The notes: a model not told the origin generated them from the sequence alone. A stretch of 64,000 nt of DNA from Calditrichaceae bacterium (GCA_050173015.1 JBFXLE010000008.1:96584-160583), one strand, 5' to 3'. Positions 1-12,038 are shown, counted from the first letter of the stretch. Numbers and translations are program-made.

Positions 1-891
1 GTGTATGTCCTTTTAAGTATTATAGAGGCGAGTCTGCTCATGGTGGCGGGCATGAACTGGTTTGATGCTCTTTGTCATACATTCGGAACAATGGCAACCG
101 GTGGATTCTCAACAAAAAACGCGAGCATCGGACATTACAACAGCGCGATGATAGATTATATTATCATTATATTTATGATTTTGGCCGGAACCAATTTTTC
201 CCTGCATTACAGAGCTCTAAAGAAAAAACCTTTTATCTACTGGAAGGATCCGGAGGCGATGTTTTTTATCGGAATAATCGTATTCGCGACGATCGCCATC
301 GGCCTGAATGTCTGGATTCACACCGGAAACAACCTTACTTTAACCGTCCGGCATTCACTTTTCCAGGTGGTATCAATTCTCACCACCACCGGTTACGGCA
401 CGGCAAATTATGAACTCTGGAGTTCCACTTCACAAATGATCCTGTTTGTGCTGATGTTTATGGGAGGATGCGCCGGTTCTACCGGAGGCGGGATGAAGAT
501 CATACGCTCACTGATTCTGATCAAATTTGGCTTAAATGAATTAAAAAGGCTTATTCATCCGCAGGCGATTCTGCCTGTCCGCATCGGGAATTCAGTCATT
601 CCGCGTGAAATTGTAACAAATATTGCCGGATTTTTTATGTTTTATATCGCCCTTTTTGTCTCGGGTGTGCTTTTTATGAGCGAACTTGGGCTGACACTGG
701 ATACGGCTATGGGAAGCGTCGCGGCGACTATCGGAAATATAGGTCCGGGTCTTGGAGATGTCGGTCCAAGTGATAATTACGCGTTTATTCCGGACATCGG
801 AAAATGGTTTCTATCTTTTCTTATGCTTGTCGGACGTCTTGAAATCTATACCGTCCTGATCATTTTTACGCCGGCTTTTTGGAAAAAATAA
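1..891 (+). CDS. trkH: TrkH family potassium uptake membrane protein (5' truncated by window edge)
   Basis: P-loop-type motifs ATGGFS, TTTGY, GGCAGSTGGGMK, GNIGPGLG and the C-terminal LMLVGRLEI; hydrophobic throughout. Confidence 0.93.
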   Translation: MYVLLSIIEASLLMVAGMNWFDALCHTFGTMATGGFSTKNASIGHYNSAMIDYIIIIFMILAGTNFSLHYRALKKKPFIYWKDPEAMFFIGIIVFATIAIGLNVWIHTGNNLTLTVRHSLFQVVSILTTTGYGTANYELWSSTSQMILFVLMFMGGCAGSTGGGMKIIRSLILIKFGLNELKRLIHPQAILPVRIGNSVIPREIVTNIAGFFMFYIALFVSGVLFMSELGLTLDTAMGSVAATIGNIGPGLGDVGPSDNYAFIPDIGKWFLSFLMLVGRLEIYTVLIIFTPAFWKK

Positions 892-920
892 AAATCAGAC
901 TTCCTGTTTTTCTATTAACA

Positions 921-956
921 AAAAAGCCGTCGCAGGTTTCCCGGCAACGGCTTTTT
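921..956. terminator. Bidirectional intrinsic terminator between convergent trkH and typA
   Basis: AAAAAGCCGT...ACGGCTTTTT inverted repeat with A/T tails on both sides. Confidence 0.8.
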
Positions 957-958
957 AA

Positions 959-2788
959 CTATTTACCTTTTGTTTTACCCAGCTTAACCGCCATGAATCT
1001 TTTCCGTTCATTTTCATCGAGAATAATTTTTCTCAACCGGATTGATTTCGGCGTGATTTCCACCAGCTCATCGTCGTCGACGAATTCAAGGTATTCCTCA
1101 AGACTTAATTTTGTCGGGGGAACGATCTTAATCGCCTTGTCACTGCCGGATGCTCTCATATTAGAAAGCTTTTTCGATTTTTGTAAATTAACCTGGATAT
1201 CGCCTTCCTTATTGTATTCACCCACAACCTGTCCGGCATAAACATTTTCCGTTGTCTCGACTATAAAACTGCCTCTGTCCTGTAGCGCGTCAACGGCATA
1301 AGGTATAACCGGACCTGTACCCATTGAAATCATTACCCCGTTGAGACGGTGTGGAATGGAACCTTTAAAAAATTCATATTGATAAAAACGGTGAGACATC
1401 ACCGATTCACCTGCTGTAGCGGTAAGAAGTTTATTTCTTAGTCCCATCAGACCACGTGACGGAATGTGAAAAACCAGATGTCTAAAGCTGCCTTTGTCTT
1501 CCATTTTTAAAAGCGTTGCCCTGCGCGGACTGACAATCTCGATCACTTTTCCTGCCCACGCTTCCGGTACATCAACAACCAGCTCCTCAACCGGCTCAGC
1601 CTTACGCCCGTCAATCTCCTTAAAGATCACTTTCGGCTGACCGACCGCGAACTCATATCCCTCACGGCGCATATTTTCAATAAGAATGGACAAATGCAAT
1701 ATTCCCCGACCCGAGATTTTATAGCTGTCCGGTGAACCGGTTTCTTCCACTTTTAACGCCACATCAGATTCCAACTCCCGGAACAAACGGTCTCTCAGAT
1801 GACGGCTTGTCACATACTTCCCATCTTTGCCATAAAACGGAGATGTATTAATCGTAAATGTCATGCTAATCGTCGGCTCGTCGATAGTGATGATGGGCAT
1901 TGGTTCCGGATTTTCGAAGTCGGCGATTGTATCACCAATATTAATATCTTCTATTCCGACGATGGCGCAGATGTCACCCGTTGGGACTTCATCCTGTTCC
2001 TCACGTTCAAGACCTTCAAATGTGAGCAATTGTTTTATATGAATATTTTTGATATCGCCATTTCGTTTGACCAGTTTATAAGATGTTGCGTTTGTGACCA
2101 CGCCTCGGTAAACCCGCCCTATTCCGATACGTCCTACATACGGAGAATAGTCGATGCTCGTTATCTGCATCTGGGTGGTTCCCTCTTCTGCTTTAGGTTG
2201 CGGAATACTTTCAATGACCGCTTTCATCAGAGGTTCAAGGTTTTTTCCCGGCTTTGCGGCTGATTTACTTGCCCAGCCGCTCTTGGCTGAAGCGTAGATT
2301 ACCGGAAATTCGAGCTGATGGTCATCTGCACCCAAATCGATGAATAAATCATAGATTTCATCCAGCACTTCCTTTGGACGGACATGCGGCCGATCCATTT
2401 TATTTATAACCACAACCGGTTTAAGATTCAAATCAAGCGCCTTTTGCAGCACAAATCTTGTCTGCGGCATGGTGCCCTCAAAGGCATCAACCAACAGCAG
2501 CACGCCATTTGCCATCTTTAAAACGCGCTCCACTTCACCGCCAAAATCGGCATGGCCCGGCGTATCAATTAGATTTATTTTATAATCCAGGTATCTAAAG
2601 GAAATATTTTTTGATAATATGGTAATTCCGCGCTCCCGTTCCAGATCGTTCGAATCCATAAATTGTTTTTGAACAACCTGATTATCCCGGAAAACATGGT
2701 TTTGTTTCAGTAACTCGTCCACAAGTGTTGTCTTACCGTGGTCAACATGCGCAATAATTGCAATATTGCGGATTTTCTCGATGTTCAT
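959..2788 (-). CDS. typA: Translational GTPase TypA/BipA
   Basis: [71 protein letters not shown]. Confidence 0.97.
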
Positions 2789-2828
2789 TAAGCTCCTTCA
2801 ATCATAAAAGTATATTACTAAAAAGATA

Positions 2829-2857
2829 ACCGAAAACCGGAAAATCCGGTTTCCGGT
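2829..2857 (-). terminator. Probable intrinsic terminator after ahcY
   Basis: Minus strand ACCGGAAACCGGA-TTT-TCCGGTTTTCGGT hairpin followed by TATCTTTT. Confidence 0.6.
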
Positions 2858-2871
2858 AATATGATGTAATC

Positions 2872-4131
<1,260 letters not shown>

Positions 4132-4176
4132 TTATTCTCTCCCTTTCTAATATGATGATTCTATTACTTTTATACT

Positions 4177-5373
4177 TTATTGTTTTTTAAATATCTGATA
4201 AAAAACGTCTATGTTTTCTGTACTATGCCATGAACGAAAAGCGGTCTCAGTTAATTTCGCCTTTCTAGCCCATTTTCTCAAAACCAGCGGATTAAATCCC
4301 AGCCAGAGATCACGCATTTTATCAGCCAGTTCCTTATTATTATGACGCATAAAATCTACAACCACCAGATAGCCGCCTTTTTGTAAAATTTCAGCGGAAA
4401 CAAATATCAAATCCGCCGGATCAGGCACATGATGCAGTGCAAGCGAAATAAAAACCTGATCACAACTTTTTGATTTTACCGGCAATTGGCTGATATTTGC
4501 CTTGAGGATGCTAAAATCTTTTAACGAAAGAGACTTTTTTATCGCGATTAACTGCCTGAGCATGATTTGGTTAATTTCTATACCGGTAACTTTCGCTCCC
4601 CGTAAAGCATTATGAATAGCCACAAATCCGGTACCGCTTCCAAGATCCAGGATATTTTTATTTTCCTGGCCATTGAGCAAGGAAAATATCTCATCGAGAC
4701 GGCTTTCATCAAAGTAATTGTTTCTGACATGATCCCATTCATTTCTTATCTGATCAAAATAAGCCTGACTTTTTCTGTGAATTTGATTTAAAAGGTCATC
4801 TGGCGGCTCAAATGAATTTATAAATCGGGCGATATCCTGAATTTCCAGATATCCCGCGTTCTCCCTGAACCATTGCGGAAGAAAATACAGGAGATAGGCT
4901 TTTGTAAAACCGGCCCGTGCCCTGCTTATTAATGATGTCGCGGCCTGCACACTCAGATTCATCTCCCGGCTCAAGGCATCATAGCTTAACCCGTCAATCT
5001 CCCTGAGTATAAATATATGTTTCTGTCTCTCTGGAAGAGATGACAAAGCAGACTGAAAAGGTTCATCAAATTTCGATTCATCCATCTCGGTTTGCAGCGC
5101 GTCTTCATTTATCATTTCAAACTGCCGGCGCTTTTTTTGAAGATAGAAATTCACAACCCGGTTTCTTGCCACTGTAATCAGCCAGTTTTTCAGTGAACGG
5201 TCGGGATCAAGATTTTTCAGATTCTTCAAAGCCTGCAGATAAACATCCTGGCATAAATCTTTCGCGATCTCGGAACTGTTCACGGCATTTTTAATATAGC
5301 CGTAAACTTCGCCTTCGTGTGAATACAGTTTTTGCCAGATTTGTTTTTCGTACTTTTTATCTTTTTCAGTCAT
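4177..5373 (-). CDS. ECF-type sigma-70 factor fused to a C-terminal SahR-like class I SAM-binding (methyltransferase-fold) domain
   Basis: Region 2: AKDLCQDVY, SLKNWLITVARNRVVN. Region 4: LSSLPERQKHIFILREIDGLSY...ISRAR. C-terminus: SQAYFD..W, ILDLGSGTG, ALHHVPDP, GGYLVVVDF.RH...MRDLWLGF. Confidence 0.85.
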   Translation of the reverse strand: MTEKDKKYEKQIWQKLYSHEGEVYGYIKNAVNSSEIAKDLCQDVYLQALKNLKNLDPDRSLKNWLITVARNRVVNFYLQKKRRQFEMINEDALQTEMDESKFDEPFQSALSSLPERQKHIFILREIDGLSYDALSREMNLSVQAATSLISRARAGFTKAYLLYFLPQWFRENAGYLEIQDIARFINSFEPPDDLLNQIHRKSQAYFDQIRNEWDHVRNNYFDESRLDEIFSLLNGQENKNILDLGSGTGFVAIHNALRGAKVTGIEINQIMLRQLIAIKKSLSLKDFSILKANISQLPVKSKSCDQVFISLALHHVPDPADLIFVSAEILQKGGYLVVVDFMRHNNKELADKMRDLWLGFNPLVLRKWARKAKLTETAFRSWHSTENIDVFYQIFKKQ

Positions 5374-5550
5374 ATATACAAATAAGCGTTAAAAATCTTT
5401 CGCTAAAATAACTAAAAATTGGGCTTTTTTTAAAATATTTTTAGAGAGGAGCAATAATTCAGAGAAAAAAAGTGCGTCCTTATCTGATTTCAGCGGTAAC
5501 AGGATGAAAAGAAAATACGAAATTATGGATTGAAAGCTGATTTATCTATT

Positions 5551-5624
5551 TTGAGAAATTTTTCACTTTATTTTTGCAATTATAAGAAATACCAAAATAT
5601 TGGATTATGCGAATTTTTTCACAA
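5551..5624. promoter_or_regulatory. Two Rex-like operator boxes upstream of the hydrogenase operon
   Basis: TTGAGAA-ATTT-TTCACTT (5551-5568) and ATGCGAA-TTTT-TTCACAA (5607-5624) compared with the Rex consensus TTGTGAA-N4-TTCACAA. Confidence 0.5.
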
Positions 5625-5653
5625 ATCTTTATTTATAAATGCTTTATCAATTA

Positions 5654-5669
5654 TGGCCTGGAAATTGCC
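5654..5669 (+). promoter_or_regulatory. Putative sigma-54 (-24/-12) promoter of the hydrogenase operon
   Basis: TGGCCTGGAAATTGCC: GG-N10-GC with TTGC at -12, about 160 bp upstream of hydC. Confidence 0.5.
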
Positions 5670-5826
5670 TTTTCATATTTCGAAGGGAAATAATATTCAC
5701 AGAGAATGATCATTGATCTTTTAAAACGGTTTCAAAATATTGATTCCGTTTTTATTTAATCATTCATGTGAATTATTTCTCTTAATTGATACCAAACCGA
5801 CTTCGATGTCAATTGAGGAGACTTGT

Positions 5827-6285
5827 ATGACAAATGTTGAAAGAATTGTAAATGATCATGTTTCCGTTTTGGGCAAAAAGAAAGAAAATCTGCTGCCCGT
5901 TCTGCAAAAAATAGTTAAAAGCGAACGCTATTTATCCGAAGAAGCGATGATCACCGTTTCTCGTGAAATGGGGCTATCCGCGGCTGAAATATACGGTGTC
6001 GCCTCCTTTTACTCCTTTTTGGATATTAAACCCCTCGGTAAAAATATTATCAGAATATGCAAAACCATTACCTGTGACATGAAAAACAAAGACGAAATTA
6101 TTAGCGCGCTGGAACAGCGGTTAAAAATAAAACTTGGTGAAACAACCAGAGACAACAAATTTAGCCTGCTTACCGCCAATTGCATGGGTTGGTGCCATAA
6201 AGGACCGGCTATGCTGATCAATGACCGGGTTTATACTGAACTGACTCCGGAAAAGGCACTCAAAGCGATTGAAGATTATCTATAG
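5827..6285 (+). CDS. hydC: [FeFe]-hydrogenase [2Fe-2S] subunit (NuoE-like, HydC/gamma)
   Basis: GVASFYSF, CKTITC...NCMGWCHKGPAM. Start moved to ATG 5827, downstream of a GAGGAG RBS. Confidence 0.88.
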   Translation: MTNVERIVNDHVSVLGKKKENLLPVLQKIVKSERYLSEEAMITVSREMGLSAAEIYGVASFYSFLDIKPLGKNIIRICKTITCDMKNKDEIISALEQRLKIKLGETTRDNKFSLLTANCMGWCHKGPAMLINDRVYTELTPEKALKAIEDYL

Positions 6286-6299
6286 AAAAGGAACAAATA

Positions 6300-7487
6300 A
6301 TGACTGCCAAAGAAGAAAAAGTAATAAAATTGAAAGAACATCAGAAACGAGTGGATCTGATTTTTGTTGATCGGGATATCTGGATGATAGTTGATAAAAT
6401 CTTGCTCATGACTCCTGAGGACATCATTCAAAATATCATCGATTCCGGATTGCGCGGACGCGGAGGCGCGGGTTTCCCAACCGGCCTTAAATGGAAATAT
6501 GCCGCCGAACAGGAAAACGACACAAAGTATATAATTTGTAATGCCGACGAAGGAGAACCCGGTACATTTAAAGATCGGGAAATTTTACAGCAGCAGGCTG
6601 AAAAAGTTTACGCGGGCATGATGATTGGCGCCAGAGCAATCGGCGCGAAAACCGGATTTGTATATCTGCGGGCCGAGTACAATTATCTTCTACCGGAGTT
6701 ACTGGAAAAAGCCGAGAATTTTAACCAGGGATTAAAAGAGCGCGGTTTCGATTTTACCATTGAATTCAGATCCGGAAGCGGCGCGTATGTATGTGGAGAA
6801 GAAACAGCGCTGATTGAATCCATGGAAGGAAATCGTGGCGAGCCGAGAAATAAACCTCCCTTCCCTACTTCGAACGGCTATCTGGGAAAGCCAACGGTTG
6901 TCAACAACGTTGAGACCCTTGTTTATGCCTTAATGATTATAAATCATGGACCTGAATTTTTTAAAAGCCTCGGCACCAAAGATTCCCGGGGTTCCAAACT
7001 GTTCTCTGTTTCCGGTGATGCCCACATCGAAGGGATTTACGAACTTGAACTGGGAATGACCATAGCGGAATTTGTAGAACTGTTTGGTGATAGTGATACA
7101 AAAGCCGTACAGGTAGGAGGATCATCCGGATTCTGTGTTCCGCGAAAAAAGTTCGGTGAAACGATCATCGGTTTTGAGGGCATTCCCACCGGCGGATCTA
7201 TGATGCTTTTTAACAGCACTCGTTCAATGTACAACGTGCTTCATAATTATCTTGATTTTTTTACGGAAGAATCCTGTGGGCAGTGCAGCCCGTGTCGTAT
7301 CGGATGTCAGCAACTGCTGCACGGTATTGAGGCAATAAAAAAAAGTGAGAAGCCCGCGGCCTATGTGGAAGAACTAAAAAAATTGGCTCAAACCATGAAG
7401 ATAGCGTCGAAATGCGGTTTGGGACAGTCCGTGGCAAATCCATTTATATCAATCGTCGATAACTTTAAAGAAGAAGTTATTTATTAA
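6300..7487 (+). CDS. hydB: [FeFe]-hydrogenase FMN/NADH-binding subunit (short NuoF-like HydB/beta)
   Basis: SGLRGRGGAGFPTGLKW, CNADEGEPGTFKDR, GAYVCGEETAL, ESCGQCSPCRIG...SKCGLGQ. No C-terminal ferredoxin domain. Confidence 0.9.
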   Translation: MTAKEEKVIKLKEHQKRVDLIFVDRDIWMIVDKILLMTPEDIIQNIIDSGLRGRGGAGFPTGLKWKYAAEQENDTKYIICNADEGEPGTFKDREILQQQAEKVYAGMMIGARAIGAKTGFVYLRAEYNYLLPELLEKAENFNQGLKERGFDFTIEFRSGSGAYVCGEETALIESMEGNRGEPRNKPPFPTSNGYLGKPTVVNNVETLVYALMIINHGPEFFKSLGTKDSRGSKLFSVSGDAHIEGIYELELGMTIAEFVELFGDSDTKAVQVGGSSGFCVPRKKFGETIIGFEGIPTGGSMMLFNSTRSMYNVLHNYLDFFTEESCGQCSPCRIGCQQLLHGIEAIKKSEKPAAYVEELKKLAQTMKIASKCGLGQSVANPFISIVDNFKEEVIY

Positions 7488-7500
7488 TTTGGAGATGAAT

Positions 7501-9282
7501 ATGACTGATATGGTAAGTCTGAAGATAGATAACATCGCTACACGCATCAACGCCGGATCCACTATTCTGGATGCAGCCAAAGAACTGGGAATAAAAATTC
7601 CGACACTTTGTCATCACCAGGATCTTTGCGTTGCCGGCAATTGTCGTGTCTGCCTGGTTGAGCAAAAAAACGCCAGGACACTGACCGCTTCATGCGCGAC
7701 ACCGGTTTTTGAGGGTATGGAAATTTTCACCAATACAAAAAAGGTAAGGTCCGCGAGAAAACACGTCATCGAACTGTTGCTCTCAGAGCACCGCAGCGAC
7801 TGTACAAAATGCTATAAAAACGGGAATTGTGAGCTCCAGACGCTGGCAAACGAATACAGAATAGAAGAAAAGGCCTATATCGATCTGGCGATCGGGCGGC
7901 ACATAGACACCTCTTCGCCCGCCATTCTGAAAGACGACAGTAAATGTATCCGCTGTCAGCGCTGCGTCCGCACCTGCGCGGAACTTCAAAAAGTCAACGC
8001 GCTGACGGTAGCGCACAAGGGCGATAATATGCGTATTGAAACCTTTATGGATAAACCGCTGCATTATGTAGTTTGCACAAACTGCGGCCAATGCGTCAAC
8101 CGCTGCCCCACCGGCGCCCTGGTAGAAAGAAATTATATTGAAGATGTCTGGGAAGCCATTGACAATCCCGCCAAACACGTGGTAGTGCAGACAGCGCCCG
8201 CGGTTCGCGTAGCATTGGGTGAGATGCTTGGATATGATCCCGGAAAAAGGGTGACAAAAAAGATGGTAACCGCTCTGAAACGGATAGGATTTGACACGGT
8301 TTTTGATACAGACTTTACCGCTGATCTCACAATTATAGAAGAGGGAACCGAATTACTGACCAGACTAAAAAAGGCGCTGGTGGATAAAGAAAAGGTTGCC
8401 TTACCAATGATGACCTCGTGCTCACCGGGCTGGATAAAATTTATTGAACATGAATATCCGCAGTTTCTGGACAACCTTTCAACCTGTAAATCCCCGCAGC
8501 AGATGTTTGGCGCCGTTGCCAAAACATATTATGCGCAAAAAGCCGGTATCAATCCGGAAGATATCATTGTAGTCTCCATCATGCCTTGTACCGCGAAAAA
8601 ATTTGAAGCGCAGCGACCGGAGATGAAATCGAGCGGATTTCGTGATGTTGATTATGTACTGACTACACGTGAGCTGGGCTTAATGATCCGGCAAACCGGA
8701 GTCGATCTCAGAAAAATTGAAGAATCCGAATATGATTCTCTCCTGGGCACTTCCACGGGCGCTGGTGTAATTTTTGGCGCGACGGGAGGCGTCATGGAAG
8801 CAGCACTCAGAACGGCCTATGAAATTGTCACCGGACGCGAAGTTCCGTTTAAAAATCTAAATATTGTCCCCGTCCGAGGCATGGAAGGAGTAAAATCTGC
8901 ATCCATAAAAATAGAAAACTGCAAGGATGAATGGAAATTTCTTGATGGTGTGACCTTAAATGTCGCCATCGCGCACGGCTTGAAGAATGCGGATAAAGTA
9001 ATGAGCAGCATGGAAAAAAACGGATCAGAATTCCATTTTGTTGAAGTTATGGCTTGTCCCGGTGGCTGTATCGGGGGCGGCGGTCAGCCAATTCCGACCA
9101 GTATGGAGATCCGTGAGAAACGAATGGCGGCGATTTATGAAGAAGATACAAATATGAATATCCGGAAGTCACATGAAAATCCGGAAGTAGATCGTATTTA
9201 CAAAGATTTTCTGGAGGAACCCCTGGGGCATTTATCCCACAAATTGTTACATACGAGCTATACGCCTCGTAACAAAAATTAA
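7501..9282 (+). CDS. hydA: [FeFe]-hydrogenase catalytic subunit (group A, multimeric type)
   Basis: H-cluster motifs TSCSPGW, SIMPCTAKKFE, EVMACPGGCIGGGGQP. N-terminal 2Fe-2S, His-ligated and 2x4Fe-4S motifs. C-terminal SHENP...SHKLLHT. Start moved to ATG 7501 after GGAG. Confidence 0.95.
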   Translation: MTDMVSLKIDNIATRINAGSTILDAAKELGIKIPTLCHHQDLCVAGNCRVCLVEQKNARTLTASCATPVFEGMEIFTNTKKVRSARKHVIELLLSEHRSDCTKCYKNGNCELQTLANEYRIEEKAYIDLAIGRHIDTSSPAILKDDSKCIRCQRCVRTCAELQKVNALTVAHKGDNMRIETFMDKPLHYVVCTNCGQCVNRCPTGALVERNYIEDVWEAIDNPAKHVVVQTAPAVRVALGEMLGYDPGKRVTKKMVTALKRIGFDTVFDTDFTADLTIIEEGTELLTRLKKALVDKEKVALPMMTSCSPGWIKFIEHEYPQFLDNLSTCKSPQQMFGAVAKTYYAQKAGINPEDIIVVSIMPCTAKKFEAQRPEMKSSGFRDVDYVLTTRELGLMIRQTGVDLRKIEESEYDSLLGTSTGAGVIFGATGGVMEAALRTAYEIVTGREVPFKNLNIVPVRGMEGVKSASIKIENCKDEWKFLDGVTLNVAIAHGLKNADKVMSSMEKNGSEFHFVEVMACPGGCIGGGGQPIPTSMEIREKRMAAIYEEDTNMNIRKSHENPEVDRIYKDFLEEPLGHLSHKLLHTSYTPRNKN

Positions 9283-9303
9283 GAGTTTTCCTTCCTGGTG
9301 GTT

Positions 9304-9336
9304 AGGGGATGGAGGATATTCTTTCATCCCCTTTTT
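9304..9336 (+). terminator. Intrinsic terminator after hydA
   Basis: AGGGGATGGAGGA-TAT-TCTTTCATCCCCT followed by a T run. Confidence 0.8.
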
Positions 9337-9403
9337 AATATTCGCAGGGATTGGAAATATGATGAAAAATATGGTTGTCATGAGAATCCTAAGGAGCAAT
9401 GTG

Positions 9404-10810
9404 ATGAGTTTTATAGACAACAAACGAATTTACGCTGAATTGGCAAATCCCGTGATTGCTTCACCGGAGCGCATTCGTGAAATTTTTGCAAAGGCCCGCG
9501 AAATGAAAGGACTTGAATATGATGAAGTCCTTGCTCTGCTACATCTTGACGACCCTCGGCTGATCAGTGAAATGTATGAAACATCACGATGGATAAAACA
9601 GGAAATCTATGGCAACAGACTCGTGCTCTTTGCTCCATTATATGTCTCCAATTTATGTCAGAATGAATGTCTTTACTGCGCCTTTAGAGCAAAAAATAAA
9701 AAACTGGTCAGAAAATCACTATCACAGGATGAAATCAGGGAAGAAGTTGAATTTCTTCTATCACAGGGCCATAAACGGGTTCTTCTGGTTTCCGGTGAAT
9801 CTTATACCGAACGCGGGCTGAATTATATATTTGATTCGATCAAAACGGTGTATTCCGTCAAAACCGGCAACGCGAATATTCGCAGAATTAATGTGAACAT
9901 CGCTCCCCTGTCCGTAGATGAATTTAAACGGCTATATCAGCAGCAAATAGGCACGTACCAGCTATTTCAGGAGACATACCACGAGGATACATACAAAAAA
10001 TTACATCTGAAGGGCCCGAAATCGGATTATGAATACCGTCTCAACACAATGGACAGGGCTTTTGAAGCCGGATTTGATGATGTAGGAATAGGCGTCTTAT
10101 TCGGGCTTGCTGACTGGAGATATGAAATACTCGCTCTTCTCAATCATATCAATCATCTGGAGCAAAAATTCGGAATCGGTCCGCACACCGTATCCGTTCC
10201 GCGGCTTGAACCCGCGCTCAATTCTGAGATCAGTTATGATCCGCCTTACGCGGTGAGCGACGAGGATTTTAAAAAAATTATCGCTGTTCTGCGAATTGCC
10301 GTACCGTACACCGGGATTATACTCAGCACCCGTGAGAGCGCTTCTATGCGCCGGGCCGCTTTTGATTTGGGCATATCGCAAATATCCGCGGGATCCAGGA
10401 CCAACCCCGGTGGTTATAAACATGATGATACGCATCCTACGGATATCCCCGAAGGTGAAAGGAGTCAGTTCTCTTTGGGTGACTCCAGACCGCTGCTGGA
10501 AGTGACAAAGGATATCGTCGCGCATGATCACATACCCTCATATTGCACAGCATGTTATCGTCTGGGACGCGTCGGTAAGGATTTTATGGATCTCGCCAAA
10601 CCGGGTTTAATAAAGCAAAATTGCCTTCCAAACGCGATGTTCACTTTTGCCGAGTATTTACATGATTTTGCTGACGCGGAGTTAAAAATCGACGGATTCA
10701 AAATGATTGAGAGAATGATTGGGGAAGAAATCAATAATGAAGGGTTGCAAAGAAGAGTTCGCAAAGATTTGATCGAAATAGAGAACGGCCATAGGGATTT
10801 ATATTTATAG
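9404..10810 (+). CDS. hydG: [FeFe]-hydrogenase H-cluster radical SAM maturase HydG
   Basis: FAPLYVSNLCQNECLYC, IRRINVNI, IGTYQLFQETY, GPHTVSVPR, auxiliary PSYCTACYR...C. Start moved after AAGGAG RBS. Confidence 0.95.
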   Translation: MSFIDNKRIYAELANPVIASPERIREIFAKAREMKGLEYDEVLALLHLDDPRLISEMYETSRWIKQEIYGNRLVLFAPLYVSNLCQNECLYCAFRAKNKKLVRKSLSQDEIREEVEFLLSQGHKRVLLVSGESYTERGLNYIFDSIKTVYSVKTGNANIRRINVNIAPLSVDEFKRLYQQQIGTYQLFQETYHEDTYKKLHLKGPKSDYEYRLNTMDRAFEAGFDDVGIGVLFGLADWRYEILALLNHINHLEQKFGIGPHTVSVPRLEPALNSEISYDPPYAVSDEDFKKIIAVLRIAVPYTGIILSTRESASMRRAAFDLGISQISAGSRTNPGGYKHDDTHPTDIPEGERSQFSLGDSRPLLEVTKDIVAHDHIPSYCTACYRLGRVGKDFMDLAKPGLIKQNCLPNAMFTFAEYLHDFADAELKIDGFKMIERMIGEEINNEGLQRRVRKDLIEIENGHRDLYL

Positions 10811-10938
10811 AGTAGTATTGAAAAGAATACGAGAAATAAATAAGATAAAAGATTAAATTAAAAATTTAATATGAGTACAGACTTTGAATCGGAAAACAAT
10901 TGATCCACAAAAATGAATGAATTAAGAAGGCTGACGAC

Positions 10939-11997
10939 ATGCTGACAATACTTAATGAAGATCCACACAAGAGAATTGAGCTAAACCGGAGCCAGATCAT
11001 TGATTTATTAAAAACGGATGATCCGTACATTATAAAAGAATTATATAACCGTGCCAATAAGATTCGGGCGCGTTATTGCGGAGAGGAAATTCATGTCAGA
11101 GGGCTTATTAATTTTTCAAACTATTGTAAGCGTGCTTGCCTGTATTGCGGATTAAGAAAAAACAATAAAAATATTCAGCGATACCGCCTTACTACAGATC
11201 AGATTTTTGCGACGGTTTCGAAAGGAGTAACGGCGGGTTATAAAACTTTCGTGCTGCAATCGGGTGAAGATCCCTACTACACCGATGAAATGGTGTCAGG
11301 ACTAATCAGGATGATCAAATCAAAATTTAGTGTCGCCCTTACCCTTTCTCTTGGTGAACGACCTTATTCAACGTTAAAGAAATGGCGTGAGGACGGCGCG
11401 GACAGGTATCTTTTAAAGCATGAGACTTCTGACGCGGGCTTGTATCGGAGACTTCATCCTGATTTGGAATTTCACAACCGGATCACTTCTTTGATCAACC
11501 TCAAGGAGATAGGTTATCAGACCGGGTCAGGCATAATGATTGGACTGCCCGGACAAACCTATGAAAGTATAGCAGACGATATTATCTTATTTAGAAATCT
11601 TGATATTGACATGATCGGCTGTGGTCCATATATCTATAACCCCGATACCCCGAAAATTAAAACAACACCAAACCGTAAAAAATACATTCAGCCGGAAGCG
11701 GAATTTATTTACAAAATCACCGCCATAAACCGGATTATGATCAAGGATGCACTTATTCCCGCCACAACAGCTCTTACTACAATCGAAGAGACAACCGGAC
11801 AGAAAAACGCTCTATTATGCGGCGCCAATGTTATTATGCTGGATATAACTCCCTTAGAAGTGAAACACCTCTATAAAATATATCCGAAAAAAGACTTTAT
11901 TGATGGGATCAAGGACGCGGAAATACTTTTTCAGAATCTTACCATCTCAACGGGAAGACCTGTATCAAAAACACTTGGGCACAGGGCACATCTTTAA
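10939..11997 (+). CDS. hydE: [FeFe]-hydrogenase H-cluster radical SAM maturase HydE
   Basis: RGLINFSNYCKRACLYCG, VLQSGED, GADRYLLKHET, GANVIM, YKIYP; adjacent to hydG. Confidence 0.92.
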   Translation: MLTILNEDPHKRIELNRSQIIDLLKTDDPYIIKELYNRANKIRARYCGEEIHVRGLINFSNYCKRACLYCGLRKNNKNIQRYRLTTDQIFATVSKGVTAGYKTFVLQSGEDPYYTDEMVSGLIRMIKSKFSVALTLSLGERPYSTLKKWREDGADRYLLKHETSDAGLYRRLHPDLEFHNRITSLINLKEIGYQTGSGIMIGLPGQTYESIADDIILFRNLDIDMIGCGPYIYNPDTPKIKTTPNRKKYIQPEAEFIYKITAINRIMIKDALIPATTALTTIEETTGQKNALLCGANVIMLDITPLEVKHLYKIYPKKDFIDGIKDAEILFQNLTISTGRPVSKTLGHRAHL

Positions 11998-12038
11998 TAT
12001 TTGTTAAAGCCGGTTAGTTGCCTTACCTCAAATTTTTA

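Follow-up and report, generated by a model that had tools for sequence, protein, structure and literature searches.

Sigma factors of the extracytoplasmic function (ECF) group are, as a rule, controlled through anti-sigma factors, and the known one-component members of this group sense metals or unknown ligands by means of SnoaL-like, TPR or Cys-rich extensions. The extension types named in the main text of Casas-Pastor 2021 and in the 2022 review PMC8999054 include SnoaL-like, TPR and Cys-rich domains, DUF1835, transmembrane segments and a CGxxGxGxCxC motif. SahR, in the passages of two reports that deal with it, consists of an ArsR helix-turn-helix (HTH) domain and an S-adenosylmethionine (SAM)-dependent methyltransferase domain, responds to S-adenosyl-L-homocysteine (SAH) and is often encoded together with ahcY, the gene for SAH hydrolase (bioRxiv 10.1101/2022.10.17.512643; PMC4239095). 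Here, we describe a gene in a stretch of 64,000 nucleotides of DNA from Calditrichaceae bacterium (GCA_050173015.1 JBFXLE010000008.1:96584-160583; this whole stretch is called the window below), which encodes an ECF sigma core fused to a methyltransferase-fold domain related to that of SahR-type proteins and is located directly upstream of ahcY. We propose, with a probability of roughly 0.55, that the predicted protein is a one-component ECF sigma factor that responds to SAH, or possibly to the SAM/SAH ratio, and would auto-activate the sigma-ahcY operon.

The gene, the domains of its product and the elements that surround it are as follows.

4177..5373, minus strand: fusion gene, an open reading frame (ORF) of 398 amino acids with no internal stop, encoding an ECF sigma core, a helical linker and a methyltransferase-fold C-terminal domain (C-domain)
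5125..5322, minus strand: sigma region 2, residues 18-83 (Pfam PF04542 Sigma70_r2, E 2.1e-13)
4912..5058, minus strand: sigma region 4, residues 106-154 (Pfam PF08281 Sigma70_r4_2, E 2.4e-13)
4180..4806, minus strand: C-domain, residues 190-398, with Methyltransf_11 at 242-338 (E 1.2e-16)
5376..5402, minus strand: conserved bipartite motif CGAAAG-N16-TGTAT, with an A/T-rich tract before it and 2 nt between its end and the ATG; a candidate autoregulated ECF-type promoter or operator
4129..4176, minus strand: spacer of 48 nt between the fusion gene and ahcY, with a Shine-Dalgarno-like AAAGGGAGAG before the ahcY ATG and no terminator-like site
2872..4128, minus strand: ahcY, S-adenosyl-L-homocysteine hydrolase, 418 amino acids (TIGR00936, 631.3 bits against a cut-off of 497.6; Pfam AdoHcyase and AdoHcyase_NAD)
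2829..2857, minus strand: terminator-like hairpin of 13 pairs, T-rich in its tail and 15 nt downstream of the stop codon of ahcY

The original prediction had read this gene as one uninterrupted ORF carrying sigma regions 2 and 4, and the 398-amino acid frame on the minus strand bears this out; the motifs quoted at the time are all present in the translation (SQAYFD..WD at residues 201-214, LDLGSGTG at 242-249, LHHVPDP at 313-319 and VVDFMRH...MRDLWLGF at 338-360). The protein passes the Pfam cut-offs for PF04542, PF08281 and PF04545 and for no other sigma domain, and has no region 3 or 1.1. With regions 2 and 4 and scores above threshold, including 83.1 bits against a cut-off of 42.9 for the NCBIfam sigma70-ECF superfamily model TIGR02937, it belongs to the ECF group (group 4) of the sigma-70 family. 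Across 25 family members, the D39/Q42/D43 and W64..R70..N71-R72 blocks of region 2 show little or no variation, and the last helix of region 4 extends to about residue 164 (helix 142-164 in the AlphaFold2 (AF2) model). No ArsR/SmtB winged HTH (HTH_5, HTH_20) was found in the fusion protein by Pfam, its N-terminus being the sigma core.

The C-domain is composed of N-terminal helices with the pattern S..YF..WD, a Rossmann-like SAM-binding core and a tail of the form D-F-x-R-H ... A-D-x-M-x-D-L-W-L-G-F, and scores 61.6 bits against PF08241 (Methyltransf_11; cut-off 21.2). Its Rossmann-like fold, glycine-rich motif I and acidic residue after strand 2 place it in the class I SAM-dependent methyltransferase fold. 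D-x-G-x-G-x-G, which we take to be motif I of the SAM pocket, is invariant in 25/25 family members, and the acidic residue is D in 23 and E in two of these. Also invariant in all 25 are D243, G245, G249, H314, H315, P319, G334, H344, A350, D351, M353, D355, W357, G359 and F360. None of the NCBIfam enzyme models reached its cut-off, and no NCBIfam model names the C-domain or its ArsR-fused relatives. The AF2 single-chain model has a mean predicted local distance difference test score (pLDDT) of 84.9 and a predicted template modeling score (pTM) of 0.68, with low confidence only at the linker between sigma regions 2 and 4 (81-101) and at residues 187-189. When this predicted model was compared with the PDB using Foldseek, class I methyltransferases were retrieved, with E ~1e-11 to UbiG (for instance with SAH), RebM and MitM; neither Foldseek nor a sequence search retrieved a solved structure of a SahR-like protein.

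That the fusion is an assembly artefact can be ruled out, as contigs from three other public studies bridge the sigma/methyltransferase junction without joints (X3 at 2800-5800 as a single contig, X2 at 2800-5139 and X7 at 4614-5180). Nor is it a singleton, since searches for the architecture revealed a conserved family. In a protein collection clustered at 90% identity, 77 proteins matched at E<=0.001 among 4179 candidates, and 45 other 90%-identity clusters contain full-length fusions of 393-434 amino acids that are 37-60% identical and unchanged in domain order; one partial relative of 344 amino acids also carries sigma and methyltransferase Pfam domains. A scan of the genome collection with the single protein gave one relative only, 90% identical. 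The fusion is present in 19 of 41 relatives (one genome per species; G030 is excluded, its match covering the methyltransferase part only) and in 23 of 86 genomes of the phylum, where it falls into two clades, a 24th match being a methyltransferase that stands alone. When 1.84 billion representatives were searched exhaustively with HMMER, 26 clusters were returned at E<=1e-30. Outside the close clade, full-length sigma-methyltransferase proteins make up about 25 further 50%-identity clusters; they have 20-36% identity and can be aligned along both halves. In the ESM Atlas, a cluster of 66 members combines sigma names with methyltransferase Pfam domains, and Chloroflexota is the commonest phylum among its eight members of known phylum. 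All 80 loci kept from a metagenome scan with the alignment of the distant fusions were generic ECF sigma factors matched through the sigma part, with a fused methyltransferase in 0, and 0 of 96 records of a plasmid collection cover >=80% of a distant fusion. The C-domain of about 210 amino acids is retained in 25/25 aligned members and in the distant members, and no cognate anti-sigma gene accompanies it (positions 1-12000 of the window contain no anti-sigma-like gene), as is characteristic of a one-component ECF sigma factor.

The linkage to ahcY is strict where it can be assessed. The fusion gene had been placed 48 bp upstream of SAH hydrolase on the same strand, and the gap is indeed 48 nt; among the relatives, an orthologous ahcY is the next same-strand gene in 20/20 loci that have downstream DNA, namely in 16 genomes of the order to which the window belongs and in 4/4 loci of the second clade. 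The three other fusion-bearing genomes are not assessable, as their contigs end inside the gene or 158 nt after it. The spacer ranges from 36 to 287 nt among relatives, and ahcY is 79-90% identical across them, compared with only 37-60% for the fusion proteins. The fusion is missing from seven genomes whose sole ahcY is of a distant, longer type. The hairpin after ahcY probably marks the end of a two-gene operon, although terminators were called by a consensus scan only, which gave 3 sites in the region compared with 3.0 expected. No Rfam family or riboswitch was detected at E<=1 in positions 1-12000 of the window, and no Rfam riboswitch at E<=0.1 at 13 fusion-less or paralogous ahcY loci of the relatives. 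A second ahcY paralog, which is 46% identical to that of the window, lies outside the window on another contig (G000, C32:20066-21295); its context is different, with two same-strand ORFs after it and neither a sigma fusion nor the motif.

In the search of the 90%-identity protein collection, the best matches of the C-domain other than fusions were 11 proteins of 308-332 amino acids composed of an ArsR HTH (PF01022) and a methyltransferase domain (E 4.4e-18 to 6.5e-9), while UbiG-like enzymes were weaker in the same search (5e-7 or worse). The original prediction that the C-domain is SahR-like is thus borne out at the level of architecture. The 226 relatives retrieved comprise 82 sigma-fused and 51 ArsR-fused proteins, 86 methyltransferases with neither partner, six sigma-only proteins and one fragment. 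In alignments, the signature S..(Y/F)F....W(D/E), D-(F/L)-x-x-H and D-x-W-L-G-F is common to the sigma-fused, ArsR-fused and stand-alone forms and missing from UbiG-like proteins; the LHH..P block, by contrast, is generic to Methyltransf_11 and occurs in RebM too. The structural neighbors in the ESM Atlas are clusters of ArsR/SmtB-methyltransferase proteins that align from about residue 97-113 to residue 398, both sides being predictions, so that region 4 together with the C-domain overlays whole predicted ArsR-methyltransferase proteins.

Domain trees were built with FastTree on 218 domains and, with better models, with IQ-TREE on 70. Both place the UbiG-like enzymes as a long-branched outgroup with a support of 100, from which the C-domain is clearly set apart. 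The ingroup of the IQ-TREE tree forms a polytomy: three clades of sigma-fused domains, with 3, 15 and 18 rows, and a further clade, with a support of 93 in the SH-like approximate likelihood ratio test (SH-aLRT), that contains all 19 ArsR-fused and 11 stand-alone domains. It had been suggested that the ArsR domain was replaced by a sigma factor, but this is not upheld by the trees, in which the sigma-fused domains form separate branches beside the ArsR-fused clade and are not nested in it. On the sequence evidence, the sigma-fused domains are related to the SahR-type domain and not derived from within the ArsR-fused clade; the trees were made without an experimentally studied SahR sequence, and the ArsR-fused relatives are SahR-like by architecture only. 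In a further tree with 80 generic ECFs, the fusions' sigma cores fall almost wholly into one group (four label changes), a result that is only indicative, as the generic ECFs were chosen by pattern similarity.

The stand-alone members of the sub-family are proteins of 206 amino acids with Cys-rich tails, which the sigma-fused forms do not have, and occur in nine of the 86 genomes. At three of the nine loci, the gene is located directly downstream of one for a separate ECF sigma factor with a Cys-rich C-terminus (CC...CC pattern). Examples of stand-alone loci are L125 (G033:C294; 1163-1780 and 2076-2648, minus strand), L131 (G075) and L134 (G078). Such a pair of stand-alone methyltransferase and Cys-rich ECF sigma factor may correspond to the fusion in split form, with a link to metals or redox. 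Other relatives with the stand-alone type of domain (P0111-P0228) are fused to a second methyltransferase domain (Methyltransf_31), LMWPc (arsenate-reductase/phosphatase fold), C_GCAxxG_C_C redox proteins, rhodanese, PNPOx or HTH_17, and these fusion partners suggest a metalloid, sulfur or redox theme for this branch.

With the fold, the kinship and the linkage in hand, two other functions of the C-domain can be weighed. We consider it improbable that the protein is bifunctional, with an active methyltransferase domain acting on a small molecule, on RNA polymerase (RNAP) or on the sigma factor itself, a sigma core that couples this activity to transcription, and ahcY co-expressed because the enzyme makes SAH. 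The class I SAM-binding motifs are all intact, the fold is like that of the active enzymes UbiG, RebM and MitM, and relatives of the domain exist as stand-alone proteins and in fusions to enzyme-like domains, as an enzyme would lead one to expect. However, the closest relatives with a partner domain of known type are HTH regulators, the domain is minimal (about 200 amino acids) with no obvious substrate lid, and there is no conserved candidate substrate gene nearby; the strict linkage to ahcY alone suits sensing better than housekeeping catalysis.

There is likewise only a small chance that the C-domain responds to a metal, redox or metalloid signal via its invariant His/Asp cluster and that the linkage to ahcY reflects a stress response needing methyl-cycle capacity. 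H314, H315, H344, D351 and D355 are invariant, and such a signal would agree with the Cys-rich tails of the stand-alone relatives, the Cys-rich ECF sigma factors beside them in 3/9 loci and the fusions to LMWPc, rhodanese and C_GCAxxG_C_C. Yet the two histidines of the LHH..P block belong to a pattern that is generic to Methyltransf_11, RebM included, and the Cys-rich tail is precisely what is missing from the sigma-fused forms, in which the nucleotide-pocket motifs are strictly conserved and ahcY is the only conserved neighbor.

The element upstream of the fusion gene bears on the output of the system. Of the 41 genomes searched, 19 have the fusion, and in 16 of these the exact motif CGAAAG-N16-TGTAT immediately precedes the fusion gene; of the three exceptions, one has an N18 variant (G010) and two are cut by contig ends (G008, G028). 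In the second clade, three of four loci have the exact motif and one has CAAAAG. Its spacing resembles that of ECF promoters of the TGAAAC-N16-CGTA type, the motif at the fusion gene is not palindromic, and no consensus RNA fold over it was found with RNAalifold (10 sequences). Over the 41 genomes, the motif was counted 60 times compared with 78 times for a reversed control and, once the 16 copies at the fusion gene are set aside, does therefore not exceed background. With the strict pattern, the genome of the window gave four hits, among which only the site of the fusion gene is upstream of an ORF, the other three being followed by stops in all three forward frames. When the same genome was scanned with a position weight matrix (PWM), this site scored 39.0 and the next best 25.6. 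The 25.6 match, the sole other strong one, is conserved between two genomes of the genus (G000:C21:57165-57191 and G001:C175:2448-2474), has stops in all three downstream frames and is probably a chance match or inside a gene on the opposite strand. No motif-like site was found at metK, metF or metH. The protein had been presented as a sigma factor for the methyl cycle; this breadth is not supported, as the motif is above background only at the fusion gene and metK, metF and metH have no copy. No regulon is therefore seen beyond sigma-ahcY, and, judged from motif occurrence, the regulon appears to consist of this operon only.

The distance from TGTAT to the ATG is 0 nt at five loci, 2 nt in the window and others, 12-16 nt in G004 and the second clade and >25 nt in G024. 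That the protein acts mainly as a repressor-like DNA-binding autoregulator, as SahR does, with regions 4 and 2 bound to the motif abutting the start codon until a ligand releases them, is very unlikely. In many members the motif is 0-2 nt away from the ATG, which would be more fitting for an operator than for a promoter, and region 4 with the C-domain superimposes on whole ArsR-methyltransferase models. However, the core-binding and -10-recognition blocks of region 2 are conserved like the rest, the sigma cores group almost entirely apart from the generic ECFs, the bipartite layout of the motif, with 16 nt between its halves and an A/T tract upstream, is that of a promoter, and its distance to the ATG varies from 0 to >25 nt.

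Returning to the SAH-responsive one-component sigma factor, we infer that its ligand would be SAH, that control would be positive, that the extension would act through contact with the sigma core and that the motif would function as a promoter. The C-domain, either unliganded or occupied by SAM, would keep the sigma core inactive, as in fused extensions of the ECF41/ECF42 type. Upon build-up of SAH, binding to the C-domain would enable the sigma factor to form holoenzyme, which would then transcribe from CGAAAG-N16-TGTAT in front of its own gene, giving a sigma-ahcY transcript that would end at the hairpin after ahcY. AhcY would subsequently remove SAH, that is, the signal. The net logic, by which a rise in SAH would raise ahcY expression, would be that of SahR and SAH riboswitches, reached by activation and not by de-repression.

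Several observations weigh against this model. With a gap of 0-2 nt between motif and start codon, as seen in the window and about 10 relatives, a normal distance between -10 element and start would have transcription begin within the ORF; the N-terminal residues of the fusion look translated, and these cases may represent leaderless transcripts with unusual geometry or may point to an operator role. About a third of the genomes that have the orthologous ahcY, at least 9 among the 29 in which the upstream DNA is long enough, are without the fusion: at 11 loci, ahcY genes that are 79-90% identical have no fusion upstream, nine of these with 1.5 kb of upstream DNA and unrelated neighbors and two with <460 nt, and no replacement regulator was found at these fusion-less loci. 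The position of the sigma-fused domains outside the ArsR-fused clade in the IQ-TREE tree has to be counted here as well. Furthermore, some proteins of the sub-family stand alone and others are joined to domains of enzyme-like or redox type (a second methyltransferase, LMWPc, C_GCAxxG_C_C or rhodanese), and membership in it does therefore not by itself imply a sensor. Finally, the sequence would be compatible with either SAH or SAM as the effector.

If the proposal holds, promoter selection would be tied directly to the methylation potential by a SAM/SAH-binding fold, and a third, protein-activator route to SAH homeostasis would stand beside SahR repressors and SAH riboswitches. As the ligand hypothesis is specific, the gating of ECF cores by C-terminal extensions can be put to a direct test in this system, which would also offer a compact and probably orthogonal part for synthetic circuits, consisting of one protein, one promoter and a defined metabolite. 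A broader generalization, which we offer tentatively and with somewhat less than even odds, is that these proteins represent an undescribed and rather widespread class among the ECF sigma factors, with members from this phylum, Chloroflexota-labeled clusters and the about 25 divergent clusters, in which a methyltransferase fold would read SAH or the SAM/SAH ratio, gate holoenzyme formation without an anti-sigma factor and drive leaderless or near-leaderless auto-activation of the sigma-ahcY operon.

The wider surroundings of the fusion gene in the window consist of ahcY, typA/bipA as the next gene beyond it and, on the other side, a divergent cluster:

5740-11997, plus strand: [FeFe]-hydrogenase cluster encoding a NuoE-like 2Fe-2S protein, a NuoF-like flavoprotein, an Fe-only hydrogenase large subunit with a small-subunit domain and two radical-SAM proteins, one with a BATS domain

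A gene for a TrkH-type cation transporter, of which the window contains the C-terminal part (1-891, plus strand), runs off the start of the window. In the intergenic region between the sigma and hydrogenase genes, the three independent assemblies X2, X3 and X6 read one G more than the window behind position 5526, possibly an assembly difference of 1 nt, which affects none of the ORFs described here.

Compared with described systems, an ECF sigma factor with a regulatory extension is a known kind of protein, and we rate as new the sensor fold together with a specific, testable metabolite hypothesis. The original prediction did not recognize the architecture as described. No description was found in the ECF literature either, supplements with group descriptions aside: a methyltransferase-type extension is not named in the main text of Casas-Pastor 2021 (in which 'methyltransferase' occurs 0 times, though groups described only in its supplements would escape such a count), and, as far as its text covers extensions, none appears in the 2022 review PMC8999054, whose one mention concerns the neighboring O6-methylguanine methyltransferases of ECF122. 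With the ECF sigma factors that have a C-terminal extension, the fusion shares the sigma2-sigma4 core with a fused C-domain of more than 50 amino acids, the lack of a nearby anti-sigma gene, an adjoining target gene and the pairing of core and extension type in the tree; it differs from them in a methyltransferase fold that is predicted to be of the SAM/SAH-binding type, and its signal is likely a central metabolite and not a metal or unknown ligand. The best-scoring named sigma models for the core are the two NCBIfam models for SigZ (NF007215 and TIGR02959), but with 83.6 bits against a cut-off of 212 and 77.2 against 168.65, it stays far short of both, and the fusion is without a Cys-rich tail. 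In the text of Casas-Pastor 2021, SigZ-type ECFs correspond to ECF238. The SAH riboswitch, which in the relevant part of one report senses SAH and turns on ahcY in cis (PMC4239095), would be a functional analog, but is an RNA element, of which none was found at the locus in the window or at the 13 other ahcY loci of relatives. The closest likeness is to SahR/SamR, with which the fusion shares a methyltransferase-fold domain of one sub-family (the S..YF..WD helix, D-x-x-H and the D-x-W-L-G-F tail are present in both), the location directly before ahcY and the expected logic of ahcY induction by SAH. In contrast to SahR, for which palindromic operators are found upstream of sahR, ahcY, metK, metH and metF, the fusion has a non-palindromic, bipartite -35/-10-like motif, which is present at none of metK, metF and metH. 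Its output domain is an ECF sigma core in place of the ArsR winged HTH, and control would accordingly be exerted by activation where SahR represses.

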